Positions 573-39,084 of a stretch of DNA of 64,000 nucleotides are shown here, piece after piece (the stretch's first letter is position 1; each line of letters opens with the position of its first letter). The notes under the pieces were generated by a model. The model saw only the letters and a list, made by a program, of their open reading frames with translations, did not search any database and had not been told where the DNA came from. Location of the stretch: contig CM097882.1 of the NCBI GenBank assembly GCA_044892505.1, positions 399,528,001 to 399,592,000 of the forward strand. The letters run 5' to 3'. Source of the DNA: Schmidtea nova. Taxonomy: Eukaryota. A program made the translations under genes and the position numbers.

Positions 573-1771
573 CAATAAAGAATGAACAATATAAATCAAA
601 ATTACTCACGCGGAACAAAAATTGAAATGAGTCACTCAAGACTGACAGCGAGTAGGTGAATCGCTCGGATTAACCTTAAAAATATAAAATAAAATTGAAA
701 ATAAATTTAACGCACTAATAATCATAAAACTTTACGGATTTACAACACAATAGAAAAGCATTAAAAAAATAAACATACGAGATATGCACACGCATACTGT
801 ATGCTGATTGCTTAATGTAAAATGAAAACTACTATATAAGCAGTAGTCAAACTCAGTGAAATAAATATAAAGGATATAAAAAAACATCATCGCATCTCAT
901 CTTGTCTGAGAGTTGTCCGTTTACCAAGTGTACTTGTGAATCGAAACGTAACATTTTGTGGAAATAATGGTAAATTTTGATCACTTGTGTTGTTTCTATA
1001 AACCCTCATGTTTTTTCTCAGTTTGGTAAGATTACGTCCGGATAGTCTTCAAGACTAGACGGGCGACAATGGGCTTCTCGGATGCAGCGCCTCTGAGTGC
1101 TGACCGATGCGGCGAGAAGCACGAAATTTTTGGGGGAGGGAAGGCACATCGGTCATCGCAAGGGTATATACATGGGTATACCAGGAAAATCACCAACTCG
1201 AATGAGTATTACAGTTGATTCAGTCAAAGCCCTAAATATTAACACAATATATACCAGGGAAGGAGAACTAATGAGTATCTACACGCACAGGATCACCCAC
1301 ATGTAAAAAATAAATGAGCCATTCAAAGGCACACGTAACACGAAATAGTGATAATACCGAACCATTCAGACACTCACGCGTAGAGTTGAGGCAAAGGGGA
1401 ATACCTTCGATAAGAGTATGAATGAGGAATGCATGAGGTGCAAATTTTTTCAGTGTATGTTGGCAAAGGCATGAGATGACAGGAATATTTCCGAACGATG
1501 GATGAGAAAGTATGGGTGTTGAGATATGTCGAATGATGATCTGAGATGAGAGAGAATACTAAACGACTATTCAGATATAAATACAGAAAATGTTCAAACA
1601 AGTAGAGCATCACACAATGAGTAAAACGGTAAGGTTGAGTGCGTAGATAGCGACCTACGCGAAATGCAACCAGAGATTGCAATCAGACGATTGGCTTAAG
1701 TACGTGGCAGTAGATAGCCGAATATATTAGCCAGCAAGTTGAACTAAACAGATTTTGTTTTCTTAGGTGCT

Positions 1772-2350
1772 ATGTGATCTAAACCGATGAGACCCGTCAA
1801 GTGCGAAAAGGGCGTAATAGAGATGGACATTCCTGATGCCGTACGCGCCGAGATATGTCGACACGCTCGCCAGTGGAGGCGTGAATTTCAGCAGGTTACT
1901 CCATTTGAAGCGAGAACTTACTACGTGGTCCAGGTCCGATGGGAAGGGGATTCCAAATGGCCAAGACAGATGAGGGTTTCGAGAGTTCAGCATTTCGAGT
2001 GGTTCATATAATTTCGGATAGCAAGGGCCTACCGCATTGGATTCTAATGCTAACTCCAACTGAGCCGATGGAACTGAAGCGCCTTGAATATACCCTGCTC
2101 GGACAAGGAAGTCCATAGGTTACACCAACTTAACCGGAGTATTCCTAGATGCCTGGAAGACTAAGTCGATATGGGCTAGCCAGATTCAATGGAAGGAAGT
2201 ATTCCTCTATCAGGATACTTTATGCTGGCGACCGAACCTAATATTCTATCAGGATAACGGAACATTACGAGGCGATAGTGAATTTAGTCAAGAATAGACT
2301 CAAGAATTGTCCGAAAAGTTGTGGGGAACTAACAAGAGTTTAGTACGATG
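1772..2350 (+). pseudogene. Disrupted homolog of LTR gene A
   Basis: EICRHARQWRREFQQVTPF...VRWEGDSKWP matches QIHQKMWAWRRELETACPF...VWYRGCASWP of 19033-19509. Contains stops and frameshifts; ATG follows a ttttcttag acceptor. Confidence 0.65.
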
Positions 2351-2609
2351 AAAAGACGATGTTATCAATTAATAATAAATGAATTGTTTAATTGAAATGG
2401 TTTGCGTTATGAATCAAAGAGTGTGCTTGTGGAATTATTGTCGAAAACGAGCATGTGGAAAATCATAAAAGTTAAATTGAAAGTACAAGGGGATGGCGAC
2501 GTAGTAACTACCGTACCGATTTGTTGAGAATAGCAAAGGGGTCGCTTTAACAGATCAAAGGAATATTGATACCTGTCTCATTTTTCTGTATTAGGTAATC
2601 CAACGCTGA

Positions 2610-3143
2610 ATGGAAAAATCAGACAAGTCATCTGACGAATACTTACTACGAATGCGAAACCGATTGCTAGAGCGTAAACTTCATAGGCAAACGATTGAAT
2701 TTGATGAGAAGCGTCGAACATGGTTTAACCCTTCCCAAGTAAAAGACATTCTAAAGACAAAATATTGAGCTAACCGAGCGGTGGAAGTCATGGCTCGCGA
2801 ATTGGCTGCGACGAAACTCGAATTAAACCAATGTCTTCGATCGGCCACCCAGGAGTTCTTAGAAATTCGCCTGAGGAATCTAGTAAGGGTTGATACATTT
2901 GAACGATGGTTACCTCGTCGCGCGATCACAGTTGAAACGCAGACAGATATGGGAGCAAATGACCAAGGAAATTAGCGGTCGAATGTTGAAACAACCAGGG
3001 GAAAGCCGAATAATCGAATCAAAAGGCGTAATAGACTAGGCGCAAAAAGAAGGAAAGAAAGGCGAGCCTATGCAGAACGACTTGGAATCGAAGTGGATGT
3101 TTACACTGAGATTTTATTGGATGTTAATATTAGGGCAATCTAA
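2610..3143 (+). pseudogene. Disrupted homolog of LTR gene B
   Basis: WFNPSQVK, ELAATKLELNQCL, ERW and RLGAKRRKERRAYAERL match WFSPEQMK, ALAATKLEL, QRW and RMGSRQRRRRREFAKRL of 19846-20430. Confidence 0.7.
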
Positions 3144-3498
3144 CCAACATAAAAATATTCACCCCGCTGATACCCATGATGTGTCCCTAATTACTCATCA
3201 TGTTGGTGATGCATCTAGCGTTGTAGAATGATGAGGCAGGTGAGCAACCTTGCGGCTACTATTCCCTCATTTATCTACGGGTCCACCACTGTTGATAGAA
3301 AGCCTGTGTGGTTTTATTCCGGTCCGAATTTATTAATACGATTTAAGTTACGTCTAGGGTTGATTTGTTATCGTTCTTTTCCCGGCCTCCCAAAAATGAA
3401 TTGCATATAGTATTAGTTATTCAAGCATTCCCTAATTTCATCATACATTGATCATCAAAATCACAAAACAAGACAAATATTTAGTGAAATACATTTAT

Positions 3499-4091
3499 TT
3501 AATTCAAAAGGACATAGGTCTTGATGACGTCGATTTGCTGCTTCTCTGTCAATCCACTTAGAAAATCGACCTCGATTCCGAGTCTCTCGGCATATGCCCT
3601 CTTTCAGGGCGTCTTTTCACGCATAAGCGATTTCTCCGTTTTGTGCGTGATGAACCTTCCGGTTTAGGTATTGCCACTGGTTTTTCCATAGTAGGAGTAA
3701 AGTTTCACTCTGTTTGAATTTTGCTATTTGTGCACGCTGACGTCACCCAGCGATTAAAGGTACTGGCGCGTATTAAGGGCCGTAATGGTTGCTCCACAAA
3801 TTCACAGGTGGATGCTCGTAAATAATTGTTCAGCTCCAGCCAGACTGCGGCGGTCTCTCTGGCTTATTTATATCGATTATCTATATCTATTTATTATTAT
3901 AATCGATTTATATCGATTATTTATCTATATCGATGCTGTTGAATATCTTTGACCCGTTCGGGGTGGAACCAGGTTGTTTTCAACAAGTTTATTTCGAATT
4001 CCTGACTCAACAAATGGCTCTCCAGTACTTTTACTCTTTTGCGCAATAGACTCTTTTCGTTGATATTGAGGTCATCCGTATTTCTGTCCAT
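3499..4091 (-). pseudogene. Disrupted homolog of LTR gene B
   Basis: MDRN...LLKTTWFHPERVK...AYAERLGIEVDFLSGLTE, with frameshifts and an AT-rich insert. ATG directly follows ttttag. Confidence 0.65.
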
Positions 4092-4337
4092 CTAAAATCA
4101 GAGGGTTAGTTAACTGTCCATCGCTGTCAATCACGGTCAACCATCCATTCCCACATACACTCGGTTCGACCTCAATTACATTTAATTATTCTGATATTAT
4201 TATTTTCACATCTTTCCCAGTCATTCAAACACTCATACAACATTCATCATACAATATTAAAACTCGTGGAATCAAGAACTCATTTATTTACTTTTCGCTG
4301 ACACAAGCGTACCACACATGTTTTCATATATAATCCA

Positions 4338-4908
4338 TCAGAACTCGATCCATTCCTGGTCGCACTCTCGATCTGCTTTCGGAGTACCGTCTGCTTTGAA
4401 GTATTCCGAGCAAGGTGTCCAATACAATTTCTCGTTATGGATAAAGATCTCCAATAACCGTGTTTCGAGTGCCCATTGATCCTGATCCATGTTTCGGTTT
4501 CCTGGCGAGTTTGTATAAGGGCGTAGTTCTCCGGTGCGAATACATCTGGGGCGTTCCAAAAGGATATAACCCATTTGTCGTAATACTTGTCTCGGGATAG
4601 CCATGAATGTTAGTACCCAACGGGGTATGGCATTCCCGTCTTCAACTTGTATCAAACCATTTCAGTGTGGCCGAGACTCTATCTGAGTTTGGTAGAGGCC
4701 AGGATGGGTCGCCCTCCCATCTTATTTGGAAGTGGTATATGGTAGTATCCGACATGGTAGCAAGATTCAGGTGGCGTCTCATCCATGCCTTCATATGGCG
4801 TTCAGTGGTCGCCTGGATTTGTCTCGAAACTTCTGATGTTGCTCTTTGTTAAGCTATGTTCGGCCTCTTTGATTGGCAGTGATAGATTCGTGGTATTTTA
4901 CGTGGCAT
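4338..4908 (-). pseudogene. Disrupted homolog of LTR gene A
   Basis: RHMKAWMRR...IRWEGDPSWP and GNAIPRWVLTFMAIPRQVLRQMGY resemble gene A. ATG follows tttcacag+aaa. Confidence 0.6.
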
Positions 4909-6213
4909 TTTCTGTGAAATGAGTTATTAGAAAAACGATAACATTTGCACAGCCATTATTCTTTCAGCCGTCGACATCATTCCACAATCATCCGTACAAT
5001 TAGGTATTCATGCATAATCAGACACTTATATATTCAAATTTTACCTGTCTAAATATTCACTAATACACATTCTAGCTATTTGATTCAACCATTATATTTA
5101 AATCACTGGTGAAATCAGCCTACTAAAGTTTAATGGTCATTCTGATTTGGCCAACACGTGACTCTACATTGTTGAATCGATGCCGGGTATCATCATGCTA
5201 GTTATCTAATTTGTGATCAATCTAGTTTACTTTAACATGGGATGTTTATTCTCAACGTCTACACTCTATCGCCCAATTACACTGGTGGGTCGGGGTCGTA
5301 AAAATGGCATCTTTCCATTATGGGTACCTCGCTCTCTCCCACTACGATTCCTAGTGAATCTTTACCCCGGTATGTGTATCTCAACACACTGATTCAAACA
5401 TTCTACTACCTGCGTGGTTTTATACAATGGCACTTTAGGTTGGTTTTTCCCTGACGGTGATTTCATCAGACATAATGTTATTTGGAGCTGTCCTTCATGT
5501 GCACCCTTCCTCATTAGTTAAGTTAGACTATTTACCGCATCAGCCCTCACTCGAAGGTGTTGCACTGAGAGGCCCAAATTCCCGTCAGATCCGACGACCT
5601 TCGGAACACCTTATTCATTTTAATAGAAACATGAGGGTTTAAATCAAAACAAAACTGAATTACCACATACCTTTTATTGGTGATAGGTTTCACAGATAGA
5701 ATGATTTTCCAAATAGTTGTTTCAGATACAAATGACACTTTGGTAAAATGACTGACTGGTGAAATGACTTCCTTTGGTAACAAATGACATCATTATACTG
5801 AATTTGACTGTCGTATATATACTTATTTTTGTTGACGGCCAGCCAATCAGAATTCAGTGTGCATGTGAACTGTAAGCATTTTATTTTTAATGCTTATCTT
5901 TACGTGCTTAATCCGGTGAGTTTTATGTTTACTCATCCGTAAATCTTTTATTTTATTCAATTTATTTTAGATTTCGTGTTCTACTCGCTGTCAGATTGAG
6001 TGGCTTGCTCTATTGTGCGATTTTTCTTTGCGTTCTGCGTGAGTAAGTTTTTGATTCTAATTCATTGTTAATTTATTTTCAGGCTTCGCTGCATACTAAT
6101 GATTCATGATGAATTGCTGATGTTTGGTTAGTTATTTTATTATTTTTTCTTATTAATTTTCTGTATTTATTTTATTCCTATTTTAGATTATTTGCGATTC
6201 GCCGGGCCCAACA

Positions 6214-6410: not shown

Positions 6411-6717
6411 CAGGCAGGGATCCATTGAACATATACATTAGATAGGATAAAGTTATACTATAGAAGTTACGAGTTGATAAATAAGAGAACATTTGGAAGT
6501 TAGAGTAATAATGTGCGTAAGTTCTTCTATCGGCAAAAGTAACTCGTGAGAGAGAATACAATGTGGAGTAATTTTGGCAACAAAATTAACCTGCTCACTA
6601 AATTCTCGCGCGACTGTGAACATTACCAACATAGATTGCTATAAAGTAATTATAGGTACAGGAGATGATGTAGTTTTTAAATTTTCATGATGGTGTATGG
6701 TTTACCGCATTCTCTAG

Positions 6718-7218
6718 TGTAGTGCCTCCGTTATAATTATATGTTATTATATTATTTAATTAAATATCAATATTTATATATTAAAATCTATTATTAAAAA
6801 AAATGCGATTTGTTTAAATCACACAAAAATGGCACTTTTCACCTTATTTAAAAAACTACATGCAAGAAGCAATTTAAGAAAAATGGAAGCTGCACCAATT
6901 AAAACCCAATGCAAACCACAAAGTTACCCATTGAATGTAGTAATGAAAAAGAACGCAAATCGCACAAAAGAATTCAGTGAGCACAAGAGGCGAATGAGAC
7001 AATCAATCACCCCAGTGATTGCTACAAGCACAAAGATCGATATTTCTACCATTGATATACCAGAGCGCATTAAAGACAGCTATTTCATGAAGGAAAAGAA
7101 GACTAAATCAACTGTGAAATCTGATGATATATTGGCAGCTAAGAAAGAACAATTTGTTTTATTAAATATATTTTTAGCTGCTATATTTGTTTTATTAAAT
7201 ATATTTGCAGCTGCTAAA
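6718..7218 (+). repeat. 5' LTR of the nested element
   Basis: TGTAGTGCC...GCTGCTAAA, a direct repeat of 10158-10658 with about 3 substitutions. Confidence 0.93.
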
Positions 7219-9381
7219 AATGGTGTCAGAAACCCTGATATAATATATGAGGCAAATAGAATAGTTTTTATTACTAGTGGACTTTCTCAAAACTCAGCAG
7301 CATCAACATCAGCCGGGTTTACATTTGGACAATTACCGAGCGCAAAAATCGATTCACTTGCACCATTCAATCAAAATAGGATTTCAACGGAAACATCGAA
7401 TACTTTATCAACTGAATCAACACCGATTATGTTTTTGGTAAAAAAGAAATCAGATGCAATTTTTTCTTCAATATCAACACCATCGTCATCGATGTCGTTA
7501 AAGTTCATACAAATATCTTCTATAAAGTTGCATATTGTCGTACCGAGCTCAATTTCGTCAAATTCAACGGTATTTGGTCAAATATCTAAAAGTGACTCAA
7601 AACAAGTAGCTGCAAACGTCATTCCGAAATTCGCAAACACCAGCATCACTTTTGAACAATTGAGACGAGATGATTCGGGTTCTTATAAATGCGCTGTCAA
7701 AGGAACTACTGAGACCGGGTCAACAATGGAATTGGAAGCCTCGACATTTCAACCAGCCTCAGAAACTACATTCTGTCAATCAGTAGAAACAGGAAAGCGT
7801 GAAAGTGTCAATTACAACAGGCAATCAGTTGAATACTCAGTCAACATCGTCTCATTACCTGAACAATATGTCATTGGTCAAAGATTTACCATGCAATGTA
7901 AAGTTTATCCTCAATTCAAAACTGCTAGTTATTCTTGTCCGTTGCGTACACTCGACCTCGGCTCCTATTCCTGTGTGATTCACAGTTCCACTAACGGAGC
8001 GGCGTTGCAGCTGGAAGCGTCTATTTCTCAAAACAATTGCAACAGCTATTTGGGATTATCGGGCGAGCGGTATTTTATATGTATTATTTATAATATTAAA
8101 TTACATAATATATTATATTTATTTATATTATTTTTATTCATACTAAATTTTAAAGTTATTTTTATTATCTTTCTCAAAATTCACAAATACTTTGTCCAGT
8201 TTTTTGACACATTCAATACAAGTCACGCTCACAACCCCACTCAATCCACCATGTATAACAACGATTCTTTCGCCACTCCCCCAACATATGTCCTAACGCG
8301 TTTCAACCACAAAACACGCCAAATCCCCATTTTCACGGATTTGCGCACTGATATCGCCACCTCTCATCTGCTTAATAGGAATGAATTTTACATGACGTAC
8401 AACGGTTTCCCAGTTTCATCACTCACCGACATTCCACCTAATGCTATAATAGAAATTCATTGCCGCGTTTTAGGAGGCGTCCGAACCACTACAGAACCGT
8501 CTTATTCATCCACGTCACGCCAAATTTTGTTCTTTTTGGATCCCGACGGCACACCCTCGTCGTGGTTCCGCATTTTCGAATCGCGCACGTCTTCCTTTCC
8601 GAAATCACGCGCCGATTACCTACTTGACAGCCTACCATCTGAGCTGATAGCCGAGCTTGCACCGAAAATAGCCGACGCGCTTTACACAGACAACCCGTAC
8701 GATGGTCTCAAATCCCTGATAGTGTCAAAATACACCTCATCTCAAACCCAAGCTCTCACAAAGCTTTTGGCACCACAAAATTACTCAGGACAACAGCCAA
8801 GCCTATTCCTAGAACAGATTGCCCGCTCCAACGACATCACCATTCCAGATCTGTCCAAAAACACTCAACTCTTAAAACACCAATTCCTCTCCGCACTTCC
8901 ATATAATCTACAAACCTCCCTCGCATTGGTAGACTCTGAAGACCCGTACCATCTTGCTAAAATAGCTGATCGCATTTATGCACTCCAACCCCATAAACCG
9001 CGCGCTGATAATTACACACCACCACCGCCACTCTCCATTGTCAACACAACACATTCACCCGAAAACCACTACACCTGCAACGTCACAAAGTATTCCAACT
9101 ATACGCCTCCATTACAGCAAGCACAACGCCCCAATCATCCACCTGTTACACGCACACAGAACGTACAACCCAGTAGCAGCGCACCACTAATTTGTTTTTT
9201 CCACAGCCGATTCAAAAAACATGCACAGAAATGTTGCATTGGTTGCGCTTCCGAATTCCACAATCCTCATGACCTAGTCATTCCAATCTGTATCCACCAC
9301 CACCTATTCAAGAACGAAGCCAAATCGTGCATAGACGGATGTACTTGGCACACGAGCAGTTACCACCATGCAAAAAACTAA
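6829..9381 (+). CDS. gag: Chimeric ORF: LTR-encoded N-terminus, captured Ig-like fragments, hydrophobic segment, ubiquitin-like domain and Gag (native Gag start probably ATG 8251)
   Basis: 850 aa open. Contains DSGSYKC and DLGSYSC Ig-like motifs, IHCRVLGG, a DPDGTPSSWFRIFE capsid-like start and two CxxH...C...C motifs. Ends at slippery AAAAAAC-TAA. Confidence 0.8.
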   Translation: MALFTLFKKLHARSNLRKMEAAPIKTQCKPQSYPLNVVMKKNANRTKEFSEHKRRMRQSITPVIATSTKIDISTIDIPERIKDSYFMKEKKTKSTVKSDDILAAKKEQFVLLNIFLAAIFVLLNIFAAAKNGVRNPDIIYEANRIVFITSGLSQNSAASTSAGFTFGQLPSAKIDSLAPFNQNRISTETSNTLSTESTPIMFLVKKKSDAIFSSISTPSSSMSLKFIQISSIKLHIVVPSSISSNSTVFGQISKSDSKQVAANVIPKFANTSITFEQLRRDDSGSYKCAVKGTTETGSTMELEASTFQPASETTFCQSVETGKRESVNYNRQSVEYSVNIVSLPEQYVIGQRFTMQCKVYPQFKTASYSCPLRTLDLGSYSCVIHSSTNGAALQLEASISQNNCNSYLGLSGERYFICIIYNIKLHNILYLFILFLFILNFKVIFIIFLKIHKYFVQFFDTFNTSHAHNPTQSTMYNNDSFATPPTYVLTRFNHKTRQIPIFTDLRTDIATSHLLNRNEFYMTYNGFPVSSLTDIPPNAIIEIHCRVLGGVRTTTEPSYSSTSRQILFFLDPDGTPSSWFRIFESRTSSFPKSRADYLLDSLPSELIAELAPKIADALYTDNPYDGLKSLIVSKYTSSQTQALTKLLAPQNYSGQQPSLFLEQIARSNDITIPDLSKNTQLLKHQFLSALPYNLQTSLALVDSEDPYHLAKIADRIYALQPHKPRADNYTPPPPLSIVNTTHSPENHYTCNVTKYSNYTPPLQQAQRPNHPPVTRTQNVQPSSSAPLICFFHSRFKKHAQKCCIGCASEFHNPHDLVIPICIHHHLFKNEAKSCIDGCTWHTSSYHHAKN
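7221..7231 (+). promoter_or_regulatory. Primer binding site, tRNA-Leu type
   Basis: TGGTGTCAGAA, 2 nt after the LTR end; complementary to the 3' end of a tRNA-Leu. Confidence 0.75.
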
Positions 9382-10199
9382 CTGAGTCGTCGGATATTCC
9401 TGGACGCTCCGATGACTTCCTGCCAGTGAACACCTCTTCTCTCAGCAAACCACGTCCAACGTACACAATATCAACTCCACCAGCAAGCACCATCTCAGAA
9501 ACAACCGCTACCCTCTCCACAGTATTATTTCCTCACACGACACCACCACCAATAGCAATACAAGCACCAACACCAGAACAAGAACCAATCAGCACACCTT
9601 GCACAACACTAGCAACAACGACAACAACATTACCCGACACACCACACAGAGCACCACCTGCATCACTACCAGCAGCAACATTCACAATTCCATCAGATAC
9701 ACCACTAACAATACCAGAAGCACCATTCACCTTTTCCGACGACGAAACCCGCACAGACTACACACATATTCTAGCACAGCCTCCACAAACCACATCTCCG
9801 TCTCCATTGTCACCAAATACCACCACCGCCACCATAAATAAAGCAACACTAACTACACCACTTTTAAACAGAATCCCTGGAAATTTCACCATTAACGCCC
9901 AACCGTTCGAAGAATACGGTCAACCCAAACAACGCACAATAACATTTCTCGCAGATACAGACTCATCATATTCAATCCTACCCACAACCTTCACCGCAGA
10001 CACACCCTGCTCATCCTCTGCCATAGCCGCGAACGGTACACATGTAAAGCTATCTGGTGCAAAAACAATCGAGTTTCGCCTCCCAGGTTTTTTTACTCCG
10101 ATCCTTGAATCCGTTCTTACCTTTCCCATACGCTCCGCGTACTTCGGCGGGGGCTATTGTAGTGCCTCCGTTATAATTATATGTTATTATATTATTTAA
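9327..10199 (+). pseudogene. pol: Truncated pol: Thr/Pro-rich linker and defective aspartic protease
   Basis: FLADTDSSYSILP...AANGT corresponds to VIDTGSSYSILP...AANGT in the relative. Homology stops at about 10095. Confidence 0.85.
9372..9381 (+). promoter_or_regulatory. Putative -1 ribosomal frameshift site A_AAA_AAC at the gag stop
   Basis: The heptamer directly precedes TAA and the downstream protease ORF is in the -1 frame. The same site is conserved in the relative at 57845-57854 (minus strand). Confidence 0.8.
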
Positions 10200-10658
10200 T
10201 TAAATATCAATATTTATATATTAAAATCTATTATTAAAAAAAATGCGATTTGTTTAAATCACATAAAAATGGCACTTTTCACCTTATTTAAAAAACTACA
10301 TGCAAGAAGCAATTTAAGAAAAATGGAAGCTGCACCAATTAAAACCCAATGCAAACCACAAAGTTACCCATTGAATGTAGTAATGAAAAAGAACGCAAAT
10401 CGCACAAAAGAATTCAGTGAGCACAAGAGGCGAATGAGACAATCAATCACCCCAGTGATTGCTACAAGCACAAAGATCGATATTTCTACCATTGATATAC
10501 CAGAGCGCATTAAAGACAGCTATTTCATGAAGGAAAAGAAGGCTAAATCAACTGTGAATTCTGATGATATATTGGCAGCTAAGAAAGAACAATTTGTTTT
10601 ATTAAATATATTTTTAGCTGCTATATTTGTTTTATTAAATATATTTGCAGCTGCTAAA
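10158..10658 (+). repeat. 3' LTR of the nested element
   Basis: Direct repeat of 6718-7218, preceded by ggcggggg and followed by TSD TCTAG. Confidence 0.93.
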
Positions 10659-15129: not shown

Positions 15130-17640
15130 AAAATTTTAGCCGAAAATTGTGATTTTATCAAAATATTTCACATTAACTACAAAAAGAACTAATATTGATC
15201 GAAATATCGTAAATTAAATCAAATCGAACAAATTTCGATTCAAAAATAAAAATTTTGAATTAAAATAAATTATTTGTGTTTTATAAAAAATTATTACACA
15301 AAAATATGGATTTAATTTTCGGAAAAACATTAGAATTAATTTAGAAAAATTAAAAGGAAAATTCTAGAACAATTTGTTTTATTACACTAGTGAAGGTGAC
15401 GCAAATCGATGGTATATATACCGCCATCAAAATGGCAATAAGCAGAATTTGAAAAAAAAAGTTAACAGAATTTTTACTTTTGTATTATTCAAACCGAAAT
15501 TTCCCGGAAGAATTTATTGGTAAGTACCATTTTCTTGTTCGGTGCGGGGTCATCGAACGTCATGCCTTTTCGATTACCCCGTACCCAGTAATATTTTATT
15601 TTGATAATTGTGTATTATGTTATTGTCATTATTGTCATATTATTTTATGAATATTATTATTTTTTATTACTATTATTTATTTTCTTTTATTGTCACAAAT
15701 CCCCGTTTTGAAATCACAATGATATCTATTATAAAAAAGATTAAAAAAATAAAAAAAAGTTTTTTTTTGCTTCCGTACCCCCTGAAGCCTGTTTCTGGCC
15801 TTGTGCCGATCAGGTGGAAGTAGCCTGAGCAGATCGCTGGTTCGATACGTAAATCGATCAGCCCATATTTCCGAGTCCAGGTGAATAGCCTAAACATCCA
15901 TGATCACTTCATCCTAACTGGGGAACAGTGGCTTGGCCAAAGGCAAGTTGTTATATTAATGATATTTGATTTATAATAAATGTAGTTTATCTGAATTTAT
16001 AATTTCTAACATATTCGTCATTTAAAAATTAATACTACATGTAAACGTAAAGACGATTTTCTCCAGTAATGTCTTTTCCATTATGAAAAATAATTTGTGC
16101 AAGAACATTTTACTCGTGGTTCGCCTTCACTCTCGCAACAATTGTCATCTTATCCGAAAACGCAAGTGAAATGGAGGCTAATATTGAAAAGAGAATCGTA
16201 TGAAATAATGCTCAAAGATGATATAATAATCACGAAATGAAATGAATTTAGGACAAGTATTGATTGATCTGAATTAAACCTCATTCATTATATAAATAAT
16301 TTTTCTCCAGTGAACCTTGTTTTCGGGGGCCTGAAGTTCCTAAGTGAAGTGTCCCGAAAAATTCGCGCGCACTTTGGTTGGGAAATTCATGCTCGAACGA
16401 AACCGAAATTCACTTTACTCGATGTCGAAAAAATTATTCGTTGAAGAATTGATAACTTATTTTATTTTTATTTTTATTCAGTATATAAAACTTTTAGGTT
16501 GAACGCTTATTTGGATTTCTAAATTTATGGATAAAAATTTATTATTATGTGGATTTCGTGTTGATCAAAAATAAAAATTTACTTTTTATTATACTGCAAA
16601 AATTTTATAATGAAAAATTGTAAACCAAGTTTTTCCTAATATTGTTATTATGTAAAAGATTTTATCATTTTATAAAATTCCAGAGAATTTGTAAATTAAA
16701 TATTATATCGAAACCCATAAAAATTTTAAATCGAAAATATTATTATTATATTGAAAATTTTATCATTTTATAAAATTCAAAAATTTCGAAATTTCATAGA
16801 AAAAATTTTACTATTAATATATGTATTCTTAAAATATAAAAATTTGAATTTAAAAATGAATATTATAAAAATTAGAATTTTTATTATTGTATAGCTTTCA
16901 TAAAATTATAAATTTAAAATTTGTAAAAAGTATTATAAAAATTATTATTATTATTTTAATTCTAAAAATATTTTATATAATTTATATATAGTATAATATA
17001 ACTACCCCACGATATCTCAAAATCATAACGCATCCCTAATTGCAAAAAATTACATCCATTTCATTCAATAACATCTTCCATACTAATACACAAGCAACAT
17101 ACATATAAAATACAATATACACACATACACAGTAGCATTTATTAGCATTCAACAGTTATATACACACAAGCAAACGATACCGAAAATTCTACACAGTTAT
17201 GTTAGTTAGCATCATACATCCAGTCAAACCTACAAGCATTCATATAATCACATCCATTCACTGAACCATTTTTTACCTAACATACAATCACAAATAGTCA
17301 TGACAATAGAAGATATATCCTTAATAGTATACATACACACAAACTTGAAAATCAACAATCTACCTCCTATACCGAAATGTCACTACAAAATACGGCATAC
17401 TATAGTCAAATGTTTTACAAAAATTATCATCCATATATATTCAAATTTAAACTAGTAGTTTTCCCCTCATCAACTTCCTACGGAAAAATTCCCCGTCAAT
17501 CAATATTCCTAAGAGCTATACCAGATCCATTTTCAAGCATACCGGGATGTTTCGAATTAACAATACAAGCACGCATTTCTCCAGTCAGTTTTACCATTCG
17601 ACGCACCATTAAATAAAAGTTTTACAATTCTACTATCATA
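15130..17640 (+). repeat. Dispersed ~2.5-kb non-coding repeat (second copy ~47270-49900), unclassified
   Basis: Collinear shared blocks: ttctagaacaatttgtttt, tatataccgc.atcaaaat, ggaagtagcctg, cacttcatcc.aactggg.aacagtggcttggccaa, atacatacacacaaacttgaaa. Confidence 0.7.
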
Positions 17641-18051
17641 AAAAGAAGTTGAAAATACTAAAACAATGTTGGGCCAGCCAAATATAGGGAAAAGTGAAAT
17701 AAAAGTAGAATAATTAAAACAAAAAGAGAAAAATAAGGTAAAAAAGGGGAATATTAATTTGTTAAAAGAAAAGAGTAATATAGTTAAAATATAGATAAAT
17801 TAAGAACAAACTATAAATAAAAATAAATGAATTTCTAGATATTAACGGGCCCAGGAGACATCTAAAAACAAATAAAATACAAATAATAATAATTAAAACC
17901 AAATAAAAGTACTTGTTATTGAATAATTGTTTTTGAAACCCAGACCTCCGAGGAAGAATACAATCTAAAAAATAAAAATTAATTAGAATCAAAAATAATA
18001 ATCAAACCCACCATGAAACTGGCCGAACCTGATTGGTCGGTCTAGACACGA

Positions 18052-18075
18052 CTGATCAGTATAAATACTGATCAG
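18052..18075 (+). promoter_or_regulatory. Candidate LTR TATA box inside an 11-bp inverted repeat
   Basis: CTGATCAGTAT-AA-ATACTGATCAG contains TATAAAT; an Inr-like TCAGA lies about 30 nt downstream of the TATA. Confidence 0.55.
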
Positions 18076-19032
18076 ATTTTTCATAAAATCAGACTAAAAT
18101 TTAGACTTTGTAAAAACTTAGACGTGTTCAGACAAAAAATTCACATTAGATTGTACATTGCTCCGACTGAGATCACTACTAAGTTGATATTAACCAGGCT
18201 GATTTTCAATAGACGATCACCGTTTAGACCGATTTTAATCGAACAAATTTTCGGGATTCAATTTAGGTATTTTTGATATATTTACGTTTATTATTGATAT
18301 TGTTGTATTCATATGTCATCACATTAAAATATATTGATTATTTATCTCATTATGATTTATGTTTATATTTAAAATATATAATGATCATATTAATCTTGCG
18401 CCGTTGGGAGCTTTAGGTTCCCAAGGTGTCCGTCCGTGGCGTGGTGCTCGAGGGCTCCACACACGGTAAAGTAATGAATAACAAAATATAACTTTATTAG
18501 TAGTTGACGGGATTTGCACATGGGACACCCAACAAATCCGGGGAATTATTTTCCGATCATTTTAGCTACAGAGGAGGCGATTTTCGGATAAAGTCTAACG
18601 ATGTAGGATAGGAAAGAATTTTTCGACTGTGAGGAGGCACAATTTTTCACCCTCACCACAGCACAGAGTGCTAAATAAACATCTAATAAACCTTTGAAAA
18701 TTAGGTCGACCGCATTTGATACGAAAGGGGCGTTTTCCGAGTAAGCTAGGAGATACATGATGTGAAAGAGTTTCCGTTTTAAGATACCAATGTTTCGATA
18801 TCCACGCAGACAAATCACCATTTTTCGACTATATTATCGGACAAGAACGGATAAATCTAAGCAGACACGAGAGTAAGGTACACCGTAACGAGCAACAGTT
18901 TTTTCTTGATTTCAGTTAAGGTCTAAGGTGAAGGCAAATAATAAAGGCATCACGATGAGAGATAACATCTACTATAATTAATCATTGATTTAAATTGTTA
19001 ACTATTATAAAATTCAGCATCGTTCTAGTATC

Positions 19033-19509
19033 ATGACTAAACACAGATTCACCATCAAAAAGCGACGAGAACGAGCCCGAATTAGCCCATTAAAGCCGGC
19101 TCCATTTGAGATTTTGCAACAAATCCATCAAAAAATGTGGGCATGGCGCCGAGAGCTTGAAACCGCATGTCCATTTACAGTATGGGACCATCCACGGCAT
19201 CACGTATGGTACCGGGGATGCGCTAGTTGGCCAATCATTCCAGACGAGGAATTCGAATCATGGCACGCCGCCTGGTTCGTTCTGGTGTTAGATAAACGGG
19301 GATTCCCAAACTGTGTGATTTATTGGGGGTTCATCCCAGCCTCTACATTCAAGGAATTGGGGTTCACTTTCCATACAGCCATACGACCCCTTCGGGAAGC
19401 CGAGAGGATCCGTGTTCAGCAGGCCTCGTCCAACTCCACTGGAATCAGCTCTCATCTACAAATCAGATCGATATTTTCGTACCGAGGGAAAATGACCGAA
19501 GATGGATAG
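19033..19509 (+). CDS. LTR-encoded gene A, unknown Trp-rich 158-aa protein
   Basis: Intact ORF with an upstream acceptor and downstream AATAAA. Diverged homologs occur in two other LTR families in this window. Confidence 0.75.
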   Translation: MTKHRFTIKKRRERARISPLKPAPFEILQQIHQKMWAWRRELETACPFTVWDHPRHHVWYRGCASWPIIPDEEFESWHAAWFVLVLDKRGFPNCVIYWGFIPASTFKELGFTFHTAIRPLREAERIRVQQASSNSTGISSHLQIRSIFSYRGKMTEDG

Positions 19510-19845
19510 TTGAATCAATGGCCACCTGTTTTAAATTAAATAAATGTTTTAGAGAAATCTGAAGTGTTTCATTTTGTTAATAGCGCTATAATGTAGATGA
19601 GAAATTTATTAACCTCTAGTGTTGTAGATGTTACAGTCAGTAGGACATTCTTTCACTAATGTAAAACAGTTGAATAAAATTTTTGAGCCTCCAATCTTTA
19701 AATAGAAAAATAATTTTTGTGTAAAGATTTAATACTTGAACACAGTAGTATGCATTTTTTCTCCTAAATCGTAAATAGTCACTTAAATAAAATGACCTTG
19801 TTGATAGGTCCTCCAGCGAATTTATCATTATAATATTCAGACATC

Positions 19846-20430
19846 ATGCCGACTTCAGAAAACTCTAAGAGAATCGTGGGACAAATCCAAGAGAGGCAGT
19901 TAAGGGACCAGCAGCGGCAGATCAAGCGACTCACGGTCGCCAATGATGAATTGAGAGCGAAGTGGTTCTCACCCGAACAAATGAAGGGCCAATCGCAAAA
20001 ACTTGAGCGGCTGCAGGAAGCACTGGCCGCAACTAAATTGGAACTAGACGCCGTCCAGAGAGAACTGCGAAATTGCCTAAATGCAGTAACAAGAAGTTAT
20101 ATCGACTCCGAATTACGAGCGCTAATCCGGCCGATCACGGCTCAACGCTGGACGCAAAGTACTTATCAAGATGTCGCATGCGGGACGGAAGATGGTATCA
20201 GCATGGCCCCCACTCTCGTAACGGCCGATTTGCCTACTTTTCACAGTGATCCATCGAGAACAATGGCGTCAGCACCCGTCCTAAATCCACAGCTTCGAAA
20301 ACACCGAATGGGATCGCGACAGCGTCGGCGTCGCCGAGAATTTGCGAAGCGCCTGGATGAGCAAATCCACCACTTAAACTCCTTAACCGAAGCAGAGTTG
20401 ATTCAGGAGATTAGTCTGGAGTTCGCGTAG
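19846..20430 (+). CDS. LTR-encoded gene B, 194-aa coiled-coil protein with an Arg-rich motif
   Basis: Intact in both LTRs, with ttcag before the ATG and AATAAA at 20472. Homologs at 2610 and 4091. Confidence 0.8.
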   Translation: MPTSENSKRIVGQIQERQLRDQQRQIKRLTVANDELRAKWFSPEQMKGQSQKLERLQEALAATKLELDAVQRELRNCLNAVTRSYIDSELRALIRPITAQRWTQSTYQDVACGTEDGISMAPTLVTADLPTFHSDPSRTMASAPVLNPQLRKHRMGSRQRRRRREFAKRLDEQIHHLNSLTEAELIQEISLEFA

Positions 20431-20991
20431 GAAAACATCAATGTCAAATAACAACCTGTTTTTATTATTTTAATAAAAGTGTTTTTGTGTAAATTTTGTC
20501 TCTCATCGTGTGATTTCACTAAATAAAATAAGACAACACAAGTAATTCGTAGAAATAAAAAATCGCGTCGTAAAACCTACCCCGGCCGTTACTTAGCAGC
20601 GAGAGTTTTCGTAGGCTCGTAGAACAGCGAAGGAGAGTGTCATTGGGAAAAGCGTGTGATGGATCCTAAGGATATGTAGTATAAGATTCAGTGGGTGAAC
20701 ATCCATAGAATGTAAATGCGTAAGACCTTCTATCGGCAGCAAGGACCCGAGGGAAGATAAATGGGGAGTAGTTTTGGCAACAAAGCTCACCTGCCCATCA
20801 TTTTTCCACCACCGTATGCAGTACCAACTTGACTAGTAGGGAATAGTCAAGGGCATACGCGTGTAGTAGTCATGTTATGTATGGTTATGGGCGTGGAATC
20901 CCTGGTATACGTACTCATCAATAGTCGTTCAATTAATGATTAACTATTTATTTGAATTACTTAAAACCCACCCATAATCCCAACATAAATT

Positions 20992-21009
20992 TGGGGGCTC
21001 AGCCGGGAT
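20992..21009 (+). promoter_or_regulatory. Primer binding site, tRNA-Pro
   Basis: TGGGGGCTCAGCCGGGAT matches the MLV tRNA-Pro PBS TGGGGGCTCGTCCGGGAT at 16/18 positions; 6 nt downstream of the LTR. Confidence 0.9.
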
Positions 21010-21313
21010 AAACTTTGTTTTTGTGCGGAAAATGTGAACCCAATGACAACAGAGAAATTTAAAATCAGAATGTGGGGAGTAGAAATAGTAACCGAAAGAG
21101 TAATCGAGATAAAAGCGAGTTGCGTGTAAATAGATAGTTACCAACAGAGAATTTAAACAAATTAGTAGATAAATTGAACAATTGCATTCATAAATAACAG
21201 GTCGGGACGACAATTTACCGAAACACGGGGGGAGGCTATAAACTGTCGGAAACGAAACACAGTACTACTTTTCGAATAATATTAACACAGTGTTTAAATA
21301 AATTATCTAGGAA

Positions 21314-21775
21314 ATGGAGGAAAAACTGAAAGAAATCGAGGAATTTTTCAACACCGAGAACGAAACATTTGAGACAGTCTGCGAAAAAATAACCCGAATA
21401 AGATTATCCGAATATGAGGAACCAACGACACAAAAGGAGGAAACAACTGAGTTAATAAAAATCATAGAGAAAGTAAATAAACTCGATATAAATACGCGAT
21501 ATAAATGGTATAAAGCACAATTAGAGGATGCCGAGTTAAATATCAGATGCCGACATATGGAACAGCAGTTAAGTCTAACATATAACCGATGGATGTCGCA
21601 AGGGGTTGAGGCAGCAAAACAATATAAACAATGTTACATATGCGAAGACAGTGAAATCCAAATAATGTTTTTACCATGTGGACATTTTCGATTTTGTAAA
21701 AACTGTGCGAATAAGTGTGATGAGTGCCCCATGTGCAATTTCTCTGTAGCTGATAAAGTTGTAGTTTATTTATAA
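21314..21775 (+). CDS. IAP-type C3HC4 RING finger protein without BIR domains (putative E3 ligase)
   Basis: C-terminal CYICEDSEIQIMFLPCGHFRFCKNCANKCDECPMC...VVVYL. TATAAA at about 21237 and AATAAA at the stop. Confidence 0.88.
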   Translation: MEEKLKEIEEFFNTENETFETVCEKITRIRLSEYEEPTTQKEETTELIKIIEKVNKLDINTRYKWYKAQLEDAELNIRCRHMEQQLSLTYNRWMSQGVEAAKQYKQCYICEDSEIQIMFLPCGHFRFCKNCANKCDECPMCNFSVADKVVVYL

Positions 21776-22243
21776 TAAATATTTAGAGTGTTAATATATT
21801 GTATCGAATGACAAAGTCAAGGGAGCAATCAACAATGTTAATTAATTTTTGAGCTACTGTCAAGTAGTCCGTTAAGCACCCATTGGGAGGTACCAGTTGA
21901 TCAACCCACTCGGGGTATATAGAAAGGGGCCAATCGCAAATGTTGGAAAGCTTTTGTGATGTGATTGATCACCACATCCCGCATTAGTAGACCAACGCGA
22001 TCTTTTTGTATATTTTGGTTGGGGAGAGAAATAGGGAAAACCCTGATGAGGTAAGATGCACGCAGAGAAAATAATAAAAATTGAAGTAGAACTGATCAGC
22101 GAAAGAATTAGTAATAAAACAAAGAATCGAGGAATTATAGAGAAAAATAAGAGGTGCATAATCAGCTCGCATGAAATTGAGAGAACTCAGCTGAGAAATT
22201 GTAGTCGCTAGCGAAGTTAAGAATTACGATTAACCGGTTAAGG

Positions 22244-22494
22244 AAGGGTTATTAGAATTTGTCCCTTGAAACAAAGGGTTATCAGCGGTTTGTCCCTTGA
22301 AACAAAGGGTTATTAGAATTTGTCCCTTGAAACAAAGGGTTATCAGCGGTTTGTCCCTTGAAACAAAGGGTTATTAGAATTTGTCCCTTGAAACAAAGGG
22401 TTATCAGCGGTTTGTCCCTTGAAACAAAGGGTTATTAGAATTTGTCCCTTGAAACAAAGGGTTATCAGCGGTTTGTCCCTTGAAACAAAGGGTT
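22244..22494 (+). repeat. Perfect tandem array: 4 x 61-bp dimer of alternating 30- and 31-bp units
   Basis: aagggttattagaatttgtcccttgaaaca alternates with aagggttatcagcggtttgtcccttgaaaca. Confidence 0.95.
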
Positions 22495-22690
22495 GAGGCC
22501 AAAGAGCCATATTGAATGACCTAGCTAGGCGTTATTGAGAGATATGATTTAAGGCCAATAGAGCCATTTGAGATAATTGAGATATGAATTTAAGGCCAAT
22601 AGAGCCATTTGAGATAGTTGAGATATGAATTTGAGGCCATAAGAGCCATTTGAGATAATTGATATTAATTAGAGGCCAAAGGAGCCAATA
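22495..22690 (+). repeat. Degenerate tandem array of ~41-bp units
   Basis: About five copies of aggcca.w.agagccat(ttgagata). Confidence 0.85.
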
Positions 22691-22706
22691 GGGATATCCG
22701 GATATA

Positions 22707-22978
22707 TAGCAATGGAGGGAATATAGGCCCAGGGTTGCAATTAGTTAAAATTAAAGGAAGATAGTAACGGAGGGAATATAAGCCCAGGGTTACAATTGTT
22801 GAGTAGCAACGGAGGGAATATAGGCCCAGGGTTGCAATTATTAAAAATTAAAGGAAGATAGTAACGGAGGGAATGTAGGCCCAGGGTTACAATCGTTCGA
22901 GTAGCAACGGAGGGAATATAGGCCCAGGGTTGCAAGTGATAAGAAATAACAACAGAGGGAATATAGGCCCAGAGTTGT
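22707..22978 (+). repeat. Six-copy array with alternating long and short spacers
   Basis: Core ggagggaatataggcccagggtt(g/a)caa. Confidence 0.88.
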
Positions 22979-23436
22979 GATCGTCGACGATAAGGAGAAT
23001 AGTGCGCACCGATAATAGAGAAATGCGAGTAAAGCTGATTATGCGACCTAAAATAATGCATGCAAGTAGAATCGAGAAATAGGAGCTGACCGGAAAGATC
23101 GACAGAATTAACAATGAGAGGCTAACAGAGAGAAAGATAAAGAGATGATAAAATAATAATCGAGTCAAATGACTTAGGGAATTAGAGCGTTCGAACGACA
23201 AATAAATTGGGAGACCGCGGGAAAAATAATTGATGTATTTTATTAATCGATAGATAATTGTTATGACTAAATAGATAATTGTGACCAGTATATAGATAAT
23301 TTAAATAGACTTCAATAAAGGGGAATCTGGGAATGGGGAAAAATAATAGAAACCCAGTAATTAGAAGTCCCGTAAAAAGGGAATAAAAGCGCAACGATAA
23401 CAATAGAGTATCGTTGAAGTGACATTTGTATTTTAG

Positions 23437-23868
23437 ATAAACCAATCAAATCAACCCAATCAACCAAGGAAGAAAGGAATTGGAATACGATAAGACAGGA
23501 AAATTGAGTATATAAAAGTAATTCCGTTGAGAACAGGAACAAAGAGTGTCGTAATAAAACCAACAGAGAAGAAAGTCGACAATAAAAGTAACAAAAAGGA
23601 TCAGACCAGTACTACAACAAACTCAACAAAACAGAAGAAAGCCGGCAAAGATAGTAACAAAAACCCAAAGGGAAGTAAAGCAAGGCAGATAATAATACAA
23701 AAGTCGATCATCGAAAACGATAAATTATCAGTAACAAGCAACAGTTCCAGCAACAAAGAAAATCAAGCAGAACCCGAGAGAAACCCAATAAGTGAAATAG
23801 AAGTCGACAAAACCAACAACGATTATATCGAAGAAATAGAAGACGAAGTAGAACAAGAAACAGAATAA
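23437..23868 (+). pseudogene. Probable N-terminal basic/acidic extension of the polyprotein, detached by a stop (23491) and a frameshift (~23852-23865)
   Basis: Same codon and amino-acid style as the main ORF. The main frame is open from 23852 and continues the acidic tract (EQETE / NNDSKASDNES). No ATG; starts right after ttgtattttag. Confidence 0.55.
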
Positions 23869-23998
23869 CGATAGTAAAGCATCGGACAACGAATCAGCAA
23901 AGGAAACTGAGATCGACATAAATTCAAGTGACGAACATAATAGTGAACTAGAAACAAGAGGAAACGAAAGTAAAATAACTACAGACAGCGGAATTGAA

Positions 23999-26900
23999 AT
24001 GAGCGAACCCAGAGAAGAGATAAAAGACAAATTTTCCGGAGAACCGTTAAATGGAGATGCGAGTAAATTGGAAACTTTCTTAAAAGAATTTGGCATATTC
24101 GTGGAAGTATGCAAATGGAAACCAGAAACAACTGTAAGCAAAATTCAGCTATATTTAAAAGATAGCGCATTAGATCTATATTTGGAAGCAAAAAATGGAA
24201 TTAATCCACCTACAAGTTGGTCAGCGATAAAGGACTTTTTCCAACAAACCTTCGGAATAAATAAAGTATTGAATGAGGCATTCACGGAATTCTCAATGAG
24301 GAAACAAAAGATAAATGAATCGAATGCGGTATATGCAAGCGAATTGAAAAAGTTAGCAAAGTTGATTTTCAATCAAGACAGTCCAATAAATGAGGAGTTA
24401 ATGGCAGCTATCTTTGTGGGAGGATTAAGAAGACCCGACATAAGAGCGCAAGTTGGATGTCAAGGGTGTAAAACTATTGACCAAGCATTAGATACAGCTA
24501 ATAGATTTGAACTACACATGATAGGAAACGACGGTAGAATCTATTTAGCTATGGATACAGCACAAAACGAACAAGAAGTGAACCTGAATAACCACATTCC
24601 AAATTCACAACAATTAAACCGACCACCACCGCAACGAAGGAATGAAGGGAATAAAGTATCAAATTACGGAAATCAAAGCAATTACAACCCCCAAGGACCA
24701 ACGAAACAATGCAAAACATGTGGGAAATTGGGACATTGGCAACAAGAATGTTATCAGAACTTGAATTGTGGAAAATGTGGAGTAAAAGGGCATTCAGAGA
24801 GCAGATGTTATACAATAACCTTTTTTAATTGTGGACGACCTGGACACCTATCAAGAAATTGCGGACAAAGAAGCAATCAACGAGGAAACTGGCAGAATAC
24901 GAGAAACCGACAAAACTATGGAAACCAACCAACTGGTGGAAACCGACAGAATTATGGAAATCAGCCAAATAATGGAAATCGACCGGAATACGGAAACCAG
25001 CAAAATAATAATAATAATAACCAAAATAAAAATACCACTAAAGAGATACATTTAATGCAAGAGGTTCAAAGATTGACGGAGCTGATAAACAATACAACCA
25101 GAGGAAATCCGCAAACAGGTCAACAACAAATCAACATGATGAGAAAAATAGAAAGCGAAAACGAACGATTGAATCGAGAAAGCCAAGCACGACATGCTCA
25201 GGAATGGGCAAGAATACAAAGAGAAGATGAACAAAAGCAGCAAGAAAGAGAACGACAACCTCTAAGAATCAATATGATGAGAGCAACCAACCAAACAAAT
25301 ACCCACGAGAAAGAGACTGTGCCAGAAATAAATCCAACAAACCTGAATCCAACCAATAACGAAAGTCGAAAAGAAATAGTACCAGGAAGCGAAGAAGCAG
25401 AAACAGAGAAGGAAGTAGAAAAAGAAGGGAACCAGGAAGAGAAAAGGAAACTCGGGAAAAGAGGAATGATGGTAATTTTGCCAAACAAGCACGTGTTTCG
25501 ATTCCAATATAACATAAAAGAAGAAGTAGGAATATTGTTCAACAAAGTGAATGAAATGGCTCCAGGAGTAACGAAACTGCCCAGAGAAGCATTCCTACAA
25601 ATAGAAGGTGCACCAGAAGTAAAATTGAAACTAACGGATACATGGGAAAACATGGGAGTAGTAGAGACAAAAAGAAATGTGATGGTAATCAAGGAAATAG
25701 AACCAGAAGGAATTCCATCGCCAGTGCGTCACGAAAAACGAATCAGTCGAATATTTAAAGGGAAAATGATACTAAGACGGTTGGGAGAAATAGACGAGTT
25801 AGAACGAAAAATGAGAAAGGTCGAGGTAGTAGACGACAAGAGTGAATCAACACAAAAAGCTATTAAAAGTGAAACAAGACCAACGGAAAATACACCAAGT
25901 GAAATCAACCAAATAAAACACATTAACATGTTGAGAGGCCAGGCAAAGAATTTTTCAGACGACGAAGAGGATAGTGACGTCAGTAGTCTAGCAGGGGACA
26001 TGCTAAACGAACCGGAAATTGAAGACAAAAAGATAGAAGTAGTAAAGACACCAGAAACTATTCAAGTAAAAGAAGACGAGATCCAGAAATTACTAGATAA
26101 TGCGCTAGAAGTAATATATAACGAGGAATTCATTGACAAGAAACACTATCGAAAATTCATGAGAGCGATATTACAAATGAACTATAAAGAGTGGTTACCA
26201 GGCCGAGAAGAAGAAACACTAAGCCAATACGTAGGAAAATTATTAAAAGAACCACTCCATGAATATATAATACTAATACAGATAAAAACATGTTTGCCAA
26301 GGATTTGGATCAAAACTCCACTCACGGAGGATATTTATCAATGGGTAGAAGACAGATTAGGGAGTTCGTATAAGAACAAATTCCTCTATTCACAGAATGG
26401 ACTAGTGAAGAAAAGGACGCATTTGATAGAAACAGGCATATGGCCAGGAGAGGTGACAACATTATCGATATGCGATGATAAGAGAGAAGAGAACCTACAA
26501 GAAGTAGCAAAGGAAGCAAATACGTGTTTCGAGAAGAAGATTAAACCACGGTTAGAATATGAGAAAGGACGAATCTTACGAGGAAATCTAAATTCCATGA
26601 TAGAACAAATCATCCCACAAATCAAAAAACATAGAAAGGAGTTAATGAGAAGCGAATACGAAAAGTTGAAACGATGTATCGAGTGCATACGTGACACAAG
26701 TCACACGAGATGGTCACAGATCTCATACGGAAAAGTAATTGCCAAAATGGGAAAAGCAATGTTTAGACAAGGAAAAATAACAGATCTAAAAATTTCAGTG
26801 GAATTGCCTAATGAGGATACCAAAGAGATTGAAGTAGTAGCCGATTGTACCATAAAAGAATTAGTAAATGTCATCAACGAGACACTATTACAAAGAGAAC

Positions 26901-38959: not shown

Positions 38960-39084
38960 GAGGCGGGATATGACTGTAAATAATAGTGTAAATAACAATG
39001 CATTACCGTAATAGTATGGGTATCGATATTATAAAAATATAAAAAGAGAAATCGAGAAAACGATTAATGTATATAATTTAGAAA

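Follow-up and report, generated by a model that had tools for sequence, protein, structure and literature searches.

The LTRs of a giant retroelement of Schmidtea nova hold two protein-coding genes, A and B, in the 64-kb window (the whole stretch of 64,000 nucleotides that was analysed). Gene A (19033-19509, + strand) encodes a basic, Trp-rich alpha+beta protein of 158 residues that belongs to no known family, and gene B (19846-20430, + strand) encodes a protein of 194 residues with an N-terminal coiled coil, a variable linker and a C-terminal arginine-rich helix. Both genes lie within the LTR in the order A-B, are coding and under selection, and are carried by solo LTRs; an RNA structure with covarying pairs accompanies them. 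That A and B are real protein-coding genes can hardly be doubted. Our preferred reading, to which we give a probability of roughly 0.4 for the whole chain, is that the promoter of the LTR expresses both genes and that B is a Rev/Rex-like regulator of the fate of the genomic RNA.

The gene pair and its host element

Self-comparison of the window delimited an LTR-bounded element of 28.6 kb (17667-46245). Its 5' LTR (17667-20985, +; 3319 bp, TG...CA) and 3' LTR (42956-46245, +) are 98.6% identical, and a 4-bp target duplication flanks the element. A primer-binding site that we take to be tRNA-Pro-like lies at 20992-21009 (+). The internal region (20986-42955, +) contains a RING ORF, a gag-env-PR-RT-RH-IN-ankyrin polyprotein in two frames, a TRAF/MATH ORF and four further ORFs. 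Pfam domains of the polyprotein follow the order zf-CCHC, Monjiviricetes_fusion, RVP, RVT_1, RT_RNaseH and rve, and ankyrin, MATH/TRAF and RING domains make up the cargo. With its LTR-bounded length in the range of ~25-30 kb, gag and a mononegavirus-like env followed by PR-RT-RH-IN, and this cargo, the element is, as judged by published description and domain content, a Burro-like, env-bearing Gypsy retroelement. Burro/GYPSM1 elements are giant Gypsy-like LTR retrotransposons of dugesiid planarians, and the accessible part of their description (PMC6431247) shares with the present element a length of ~30 kb, the placing of env after gag and before protease, a cargo of ankyrin, MATH/TRAF and RING domains, and accessory ORFs. 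For the BIR and BCL2-like domains of Burro, the ten ORFs scanned at E 0.1 gave no Pfam match. Unlike Burro as described in that part, the element has its TRAF domain in a separate downstream ORF; furthermore, the same text names no LTR-internal gene, whereas the present LTR holds two.

Several features of the internal region may be recorded here. The RING-only ORF (21314-21775, +; 153 residues), without a BIR match, directly follows the primer-binding site, a position at which one might look for an IAP-like gene. Five accessory ORFs lie 3' of pol at 37241-42681, spaced 82-125 nt apart in an operon-like manner; one encodes a complete TRAF protein, no Pfam family exceeds the cut-off for three of them, and several have homologs in a divergent element.

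The preliminary description placed both genes in each LTR of the element. This holds for the 5' LTR, and the B frame is open in both LTRs (45106-45690 in the 3' copy), but the A frame of the 3' LTR (44323-44766) is disrupted, with an early stop codon and the loss of 30 nt. Two decayed LTRs of other families also hold A followed by B, each on its own strand and in the same order, as had been noticed. The first (590-3149, +) keeps remnants of A at 1805-2294 and of B at 2610-3110, and is truncated: the 5' terminus of the LTR is gone, as is the last part of B. The second, of a third family (3145-6212, -), keeps its 5' terminus at 6212, A at 4884-4350, B at 4091-3502 and the RNA element at 3344-3145, and has lost its 3' terminus. 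The little DNA similarity claimed for the three families was confirmed: the coding DNA of the decayed copies is 0.55-0.65 identical to that of the intact copy, at or near the 0.57-0.59 of shuffles. Their recognition as protein stands by profile, but a plain tblastn of A against the decayed copies reached only E 0.71. Because the window's proteins had sat in the first profiles, the homology test was repeated without the window's family; profiles from divergent copies only then found the window's A at E=1.9e-11 and B at E=1.1e-23 (Z=1000), with 39.5 and 79.8 bits against 6.4 and 11.2 for the best of 1000 shuffles.

Other repeats share the window. At 6490-6740 (+) lies the 3' end of a fourth LTR, in a more advanced state of decay, which still shows traces of this RNA element and is broken into by another LTR element beginning near 6714. 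The latter is a separate small LTR element (6714-10658) with 505-bp repeats that are 99% identical and an ORF joining Ig-like-looking and gag-like segments; sequence related to it lies inverted at 57088-58309. At 51804-53211, beside N stretches, there is a 689-bp perfect inverted repeat of an ORF that is presumably GIY-YIG-like and Penelope-like.

Presence in solo LTRs and selection

A search of the same genome with B gave 9146 first-look candidates, of which 150 (88-100% identical) were scored, and searches with two divergent A proteins gave ~3200 each, again with 150 scored each; these figures are not copy numbers. A lies upstream of B on one strand, at a distance of 81-519 nt, in 163 of 180 loci (some places being counted twice), while seven loci hold A only and ten hold B only. 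Clustering of the intact copies examined at 70% DNA identity yielded 24 clusters for A (n=66) and 12 for B (n=49). The gene pair is common to at least a dozen divergent LTR families, so that the three families first reported stand as a minimum and understate its range.

When 20 divergent loci were widened, the 5' terminus was found in 13, the 3' terminus in 17 and both in 12. Eight of these 12 two-ended LTRs, 3.0-3.5 kb in length, are flanked by a perfect 4-bp duplication and are solo LTRs, as are six of seven in the window's family. The proposal that the pair would be spread by solo LTRs is thereby supported, since these solo LTRs carry A and B. In two of the 12 two-ended divergent LTRs, the junction on the upstream side is that found at the window's 3' LTR; one of the two has pol, TRAF and a further two accessory homologs upstream, and the other has one accessory homolog there, which indicates that the divergent LTRs belong to Burro-like relatives. 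At a further locus (L181:4062-6827), Maverick/Polinton-like ORFs, labelled by eye as ATPase-like and integrase-like, are inserted just 3' of an A remnant.

Pairwise comparison in the window's family gave a median dN/dS of 0.11 for A (252 pairs) and 0.17 for B (347 pairs); the medians among divergent copies were 0.26 for A (128 unsaturated of 903 pairs) and 0.15 for B (23 of 231). Saturated pairs were dropped, identical sequences were merged, and six frameshift-affected or duplicate ORFs were left out together with the window's 3' LTR locus. Because B had served as the query for the young loci and A for most of the divergent ones, the values for young A and for much of divergent B are the less biased. 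These medians (0.11-0.26) are far from the value near 1 that would speak against function, and they uphold the earlier view of A and B as long-selected functional genes. Over 46 young copies, broken ones included, pN/pS was 0.12-0.21 in all four bins of non-coding (spacer) distance. In eight full LTRs, codon positions 1-2 differ by 0.03-0.04, position 3 by 0.15 and the flanking non-coding DNA by 0.12-0.16; of the distinct indels, 33 fall within the 723-nt intron and 10 within the spacer, against one in A and none in B. The notion that the ORFs are chance or captured non-functional sequence might appeal to the fact that no outside homolog was found, yet it is refuted by a dN/dS well below 1 and by the avoidance of indels, while the enrichment of acceptors and AATAAA signals given below also counts against it; its probability is practically negligible.

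The constraint seems to act on the replicating element. Six presumed pairs of sister LTRs (same strand, 25-47 kb apart, spacer within 0.4%, with the interior checked for the window's pair) carry five synonymous and 13 non-synonymous differences, a ratio of ~0.75 from small counts with stops left out. Since sister LTRs drift near-neutrally, selection would act during replication of the element, and inserted copies and solo LTRs would decay near-neutrally. It could instead be argued that solo LTRs retain A and B through a benefit to the host or through selfish toxin-antidote action after insertion, in view of the open frames in many solo LTRs and of a Burro1 gene reported, in the accessible part of one study, to aid regeneration (PMC13465017). 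The near-neutral sister LTRs, the loss of A in 9 of 46 young copies and the stops in most divergent matches make this highly improbable. Three close pairs of divergent A copies that had been considered as sister LTRs were rejected as local duplications.

Predicted expression signals and a pseudoknot RNA

The 5' LTR carries a predicted core promoter (18030-18067, +), consisting of an inverted CCAAT box (18030-18036) and a TATA box (18060-18067), ~970 nt upstream of gene A. The same arrangement, an inverted CCAAT box with a TATA or TATA-like hexamer 28-30 nt later, occurs in 13 of 14 LTRs at 365-585 bp into the LTR. A predicted major splice donor (18267-18272, +) ends a short non-coding leader exon, and 13 of 14 LTRs have a donor AG/GTA in a comparable position, 108-207 nt downstream of the TATA box. 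Contigs from four sequencing runs of unrecorded kind showed no joint between leader and acceptor among those displayed, a result that carries no weight either way. For gene A, an acceptor AG lies at 19027-19028 and an AATAAA at 19539-19544; for gene B, they lie at 19839-19840 and 20472-20477 (all +). The preliminary description credited the genes with their own acceptors and poly(A) signals, and at the level of motifs this is correct for both genes of the 5' LTR, where AG precedes the ATG by 4-5 nt and AATAAA follows the stop by 30-42 nt. Of the copies of A, 28 of 43 have a YAG no more than 10 nt from the ATG, as have 19 of 22 copies of B, compared with 315 of 1277 control ATGs; the stop is followed by AATAAA at a distance of up to 70 nt in 29 of 43 copies of A and 18 of 22 copies of B, compared with 39 of 338 control windows. 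In the internal ORFs at 21314, 39085, 39533 and 41034, an AG likewise precedes the ATG by 1-3 nt. Another conserved block of non-coding sequence occurs in the intron between the donor and A, ~230-330 nt after the TATA box (L187, L190, L193 and others), with shared 9-mers in 7-10 of 14 LTRs.

The conserved motifs suggest that transcription starts ~420 bp into the LTR, and it is probable that A and B are driven by the LTR's own promoter. With the predicted promoter and donor upstream of both genes, A and B would lie in R/U5 and not in U3, and R and U5 together would measure ~2.9 kb from this predicted start site. In 10 of 13 divergent LTRs, an AATAAA abuts the donor directly on its 5' side; should this signal mark the end of the genomic RNA, R would be short in these LTRs, with A and B both falling in U5. 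The signal is absent in the window's family, which counts against the model. A position in R/U5 would make every LTR, whether 5', 3' or solo, a self-contained expression unit.

Known LTR-encoded proteins differ from this arrangement. MMTV sag and HIV nef are single genes in U3, upstream of the start site. The analogy drawn with them earlier is apt in that the proteins are coded within the LTR, but it is imperfect as to position, since the predicted promoter precedes both genes here, each of which has an acceptor and a poly(A) signal of its own; moreover, no Pfam match to the sag or nef families was found in 49 members of A or 28 of B. We know of no gene in the U5 of foamy virus. According to the accessible part of one account (PMC3694450), a donor controls the LTR poly(A) site of that virus, and donor and poly(A) signal are present in both LTRs; the donor there is upstream of the poly(A) signal, whereas the AATAAA here lies directly 5' of the donor. 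Of MMTV sag, the accessible part of another source states that it is singly spliced (PMC12789967).

A different route to the two messages would be spliced-leader trans-splicing, by which A and B would be resolved from a polycistronic RNA rather than by cis-splicing, a scheme compatible with any function of the proteins. Acceptors 0-5 nt before most ATGs and the close spacing of the internal ORFs, which also have poly(A)-like signals, would suit it, and flatworms have spliced-leader trans-splicing, operons and acceptors shared between cis- and trans-splicing (PMC12582326, accessible part). The conserved cis donor upstream in 13 of 14 LTRs speaks against it, and we regard it as a live but unlikely alternative.

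Between the poly(A) signal of B and the end of the LTR lies a structured RNA with a pseudoknot (20715-20905, +), with further copies at 45975-46165 (+) and 3145-3344 (-). The DNA of this ~200-nt segment is 81% identical among divergent families, compared with 46-53% for the coding DNA. In a model of ten helices including the pseudoknot, 94.8% of cells are paired over 64 sequences, and two-sided changes occur in 38 of 52 pairs; several pairs are split evenly (GC 31/AU 29; UA 29/CG 24). None of 500 shuffles reached the score of the model, and slid controls were 32-53% paired; the model was partly derived from the alignment on which it was scored, and the relatedness of the sequences inflates such shuffle tests. 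The RNA of the window's family, 58% identical, keeps two hairpins in full (7/7 and 6/6 pairs), 5/7 pairs of the pseudoknot and 2/5 of the last helix. Rfam 15 gave no match at E<=1 for 17600-24000 of the window and seven loci. By its position, the element would be confined to RNA that has escaped both splicing from the leader and cleavage behind A or B. It is a candidate packaging, export or read-through element, although it could simply be a Gag packaging or dimerisation signal, as expected beside a primer-binding site.

The proteins and a possible role in the fate of the genomic RNA

Protein B is predicted to comprise helices at residues 5-111, a disordered stretch at 109-149 and a basic helix at 148-179. 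The helical region of ~110 residues has a conserved WF-x-P kink. The most conserved part is the arginine-rich basic helix with the next helical segment (20293-20391, +; ~residues 150-182): the mean column identity at residues 149-175 is 0.91 across 22 divergent copies, as against 0.43 in the linker. The structure model of B (pTM 0.33) matched generic coiled coils only (best Z 6.7, rmsd 2.8 over 64). Alignment searches for B at near and longer lengths found no homolog, and the ESM Atlas gave only unnamed matches under 0.9.

The basic helix resembles two kinds of known protein. It carries the arginine-rich motif typical of Rev, Rex, Rem and Rec, and Pfam REV matches it in two of 28 members, with 18 and 16.5 bits, below the cut-off of 22. 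In seven of the 28, Pfam bZIP_1 matches the same helix (best E 1.3e-4; 22.5 bits, below the cut-off of 27.6). On the latter grounds, B might bind DNA in the manner of a bZIP protein and transactivate the LTR promoter, assisted by A as a cofactor; as in bZIP factors, viral ones included, the basic helix has the Asn-x7-Arg motif in divergent families (Asn in the 20 divergent copies listed), and the promoter is conserved. Yet all 27 copies from the window's family have His in place of this Asn, the basic region is followed by only about two heptads and then a turn instead of a zipper of four or more heptads, all Pfam matches are below cut-off, and a search of solved structures with the B profile found no bZIP chain. 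A role of this kind is accordingly unlikely.

Our preferred reading of B as a regulator of RNA fate is suggested by the layout of the LTR. One short leader would be spliced to either A or B from the LTR promoter, and A, B and the internal accessory ORFs would each have an acceptor just 5' of the ATG and a poly(A) signal 3' of the stop. Full-length RNA would have to skip the leader donor and many poly(A) sites, and a long RNA that ignores them needs cis elements or a trans factor. The pseudoknot RNA, located behind the poly(A) signal of B and within the intron of all downstream messages, would be kept by full-length RNA alone. B would then be an oligomeric RNA-binding regulator, Rev/Rex-like in logic and not in ancestry, through which unspliced genomic RNA survives and is used. 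The weakest step is that the near-invariant arginine-rich helix of B may bind the pseudoknot RNA, or another intron-retained site, and so favour read-through, export or packaging. The Rev/Rex-like logic is suggested by a basic-helix, oligomer-type protein that would be made early from the same LTR, beside an RNA structure unique to unspliced RNA. Given coding status and LTR-driven expression, we regard such a role of B as about an even chance.

The comparison with Rev, Rex, Rem and Rec has two sides. A small basic protein, an arginine-rich helix, a helical oligomer-type region, a multiply spliced element and a structured LTR RNA are held in common, and the response elements of the Rex/RexRE and Rec/RcRE systems lie in LTRs according to the accessible parts of two sources (PMC12789967, PMC11379458). 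In contrast to those proteins, B is coded in the LTR, has no significant homology to them, and its RNA binding is putative. A reverse-class export pattern occurs in 21 of 22 divergent copies of B and in 0 of 27 copies of the window's family; B thus appears to lack a conserved leucine-rich export signal, which counts against the Rev-like role.

Protein A is basic and soluble, with a conserved Trp/Pro/Gly core; neither A nor B has a 19-residue stretch above hydropathy 1.6. A model of A from a divergent copy of 189 residues (pLDDT 79, pTM 0.72) shows a helix and short strands; Foldseek matched it to nothing at E<=0.001, whether in PDB or in viral sets, and the best VIA Z was 3.2 (rmsd 5.2 over 68 residues). 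The window's A lacks ~30 C-terminal residues and acidic residues that are conserved elsewhere. As A is constrained despite the loss of these residues, a binding role appears favoured over catalysis, and A may be a non-enzymatic, soluble, basic adaptor in the same cycle as B. A chromodomain or an enzyme was considered for A and dropped, given the lack of a fold match and the missing acidic residues in the window's family. In a search of 1.84 billion representatives, the A profile gave two matches, both of which were repetitive low-complexity proteins and were rejected. Neither alignment at near lengths nor phage records revealed a homolog of A, and the ESM Atlas held no usable match. For both proteins, the sequences of solved structures gave nothing under E 0.07, and profiles gave no match to the element's internal ORFs. 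The failure of the preliminary description to recognise either family was thus repeated here, as no outside homolog was found and structure prediction gave A no fold match; this absence of homologs is weak, because the searched libraries may hold few flatworm repeats.

The pace of divergence bears on a further explanation, in which A and B, in the same cassette, would face the host and counter its defences (piRNA/chromatin silencing or cell death), with the LTR location providing early, high-dose expression. Between families, A and B are 23% identical over 78 residues and 29% over 177 residues, whereas RT and TRAF of the same element are 92% and 51% identical; A and B thus diverge much faster than RT or TRAF, yet they are constrained within families. 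In the comparison of loci L207 and L158, RT was 92% identical to that of the window's element and the LTR genes were under 30%. Fast divergence fits a host-facing role at least as well as the Rev-like role, and exchange of LTRs between lineages would also explain it. In the accessible parts of the respective sources, Burro elements are PIWI targets (PMC8532177) and carry apoptosis and ubiquitin regulators (PMC6431247), in line with the RING, TRAF and ankyrin cargo here. On the other hand, A and B resemble no known suppressor in sequence and fold searches, and the basic helix of B hardly varies between divergent families, which is not what one expects of a rapidly evolving interface with the host. 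Counter-defence is, on balance, somewhat unlikely.

A more far-reaching version of our preferred reading is that a clade of giant animal retroelements has shifted its regulatory genes into an R/U5 region of 2.9 kb and so made each LTR an autonomous unit of two genes, that B is an independently evolved Rev-like protein which binds a new pseudoknot RNA in the same LTR and switches from spliced accessory messages to genomic RNA, and that A and B are provided in trans by numerous solo LTRs. Taken in all its parts, this is rather doubtful.

Burro elements were known already; the promoter-downstream LTR gene pair and the pseudoknot RNA are apparently new. The accessible parts of four papers on Burro (PMC6431247, PMC13465017, PMC8532177, PMC11410931) contain no account of LTR-internal genes that we could find, and other Burro descriptions, supplements or Repbase notes may show them; gene pairs encoded in R/U5 were likewise not described in the accessible parts of the literature searched. 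It is customary to regard LTRs as control regions that code for nothing and solo LTRs as devoid of proteins, but those described here would be complete expression cassettes for two unrecognised protein families and occur in many copies in one genome. This changes how such repeats are to be annotated, A being a new protein domain without a structural match and the pseudoknot a new structured RNA. The predicted R and U5 imply an unusually long strong-stop DNA of ~2.9 kb, and the preferred reading offers a testable answer to how a 25-kb RNA may pass a strong donor and many poly(A) sites. As Burro elements have already been linked to stem-cell survival, the genes borne by their LTRs would be direct targets for RNAi.
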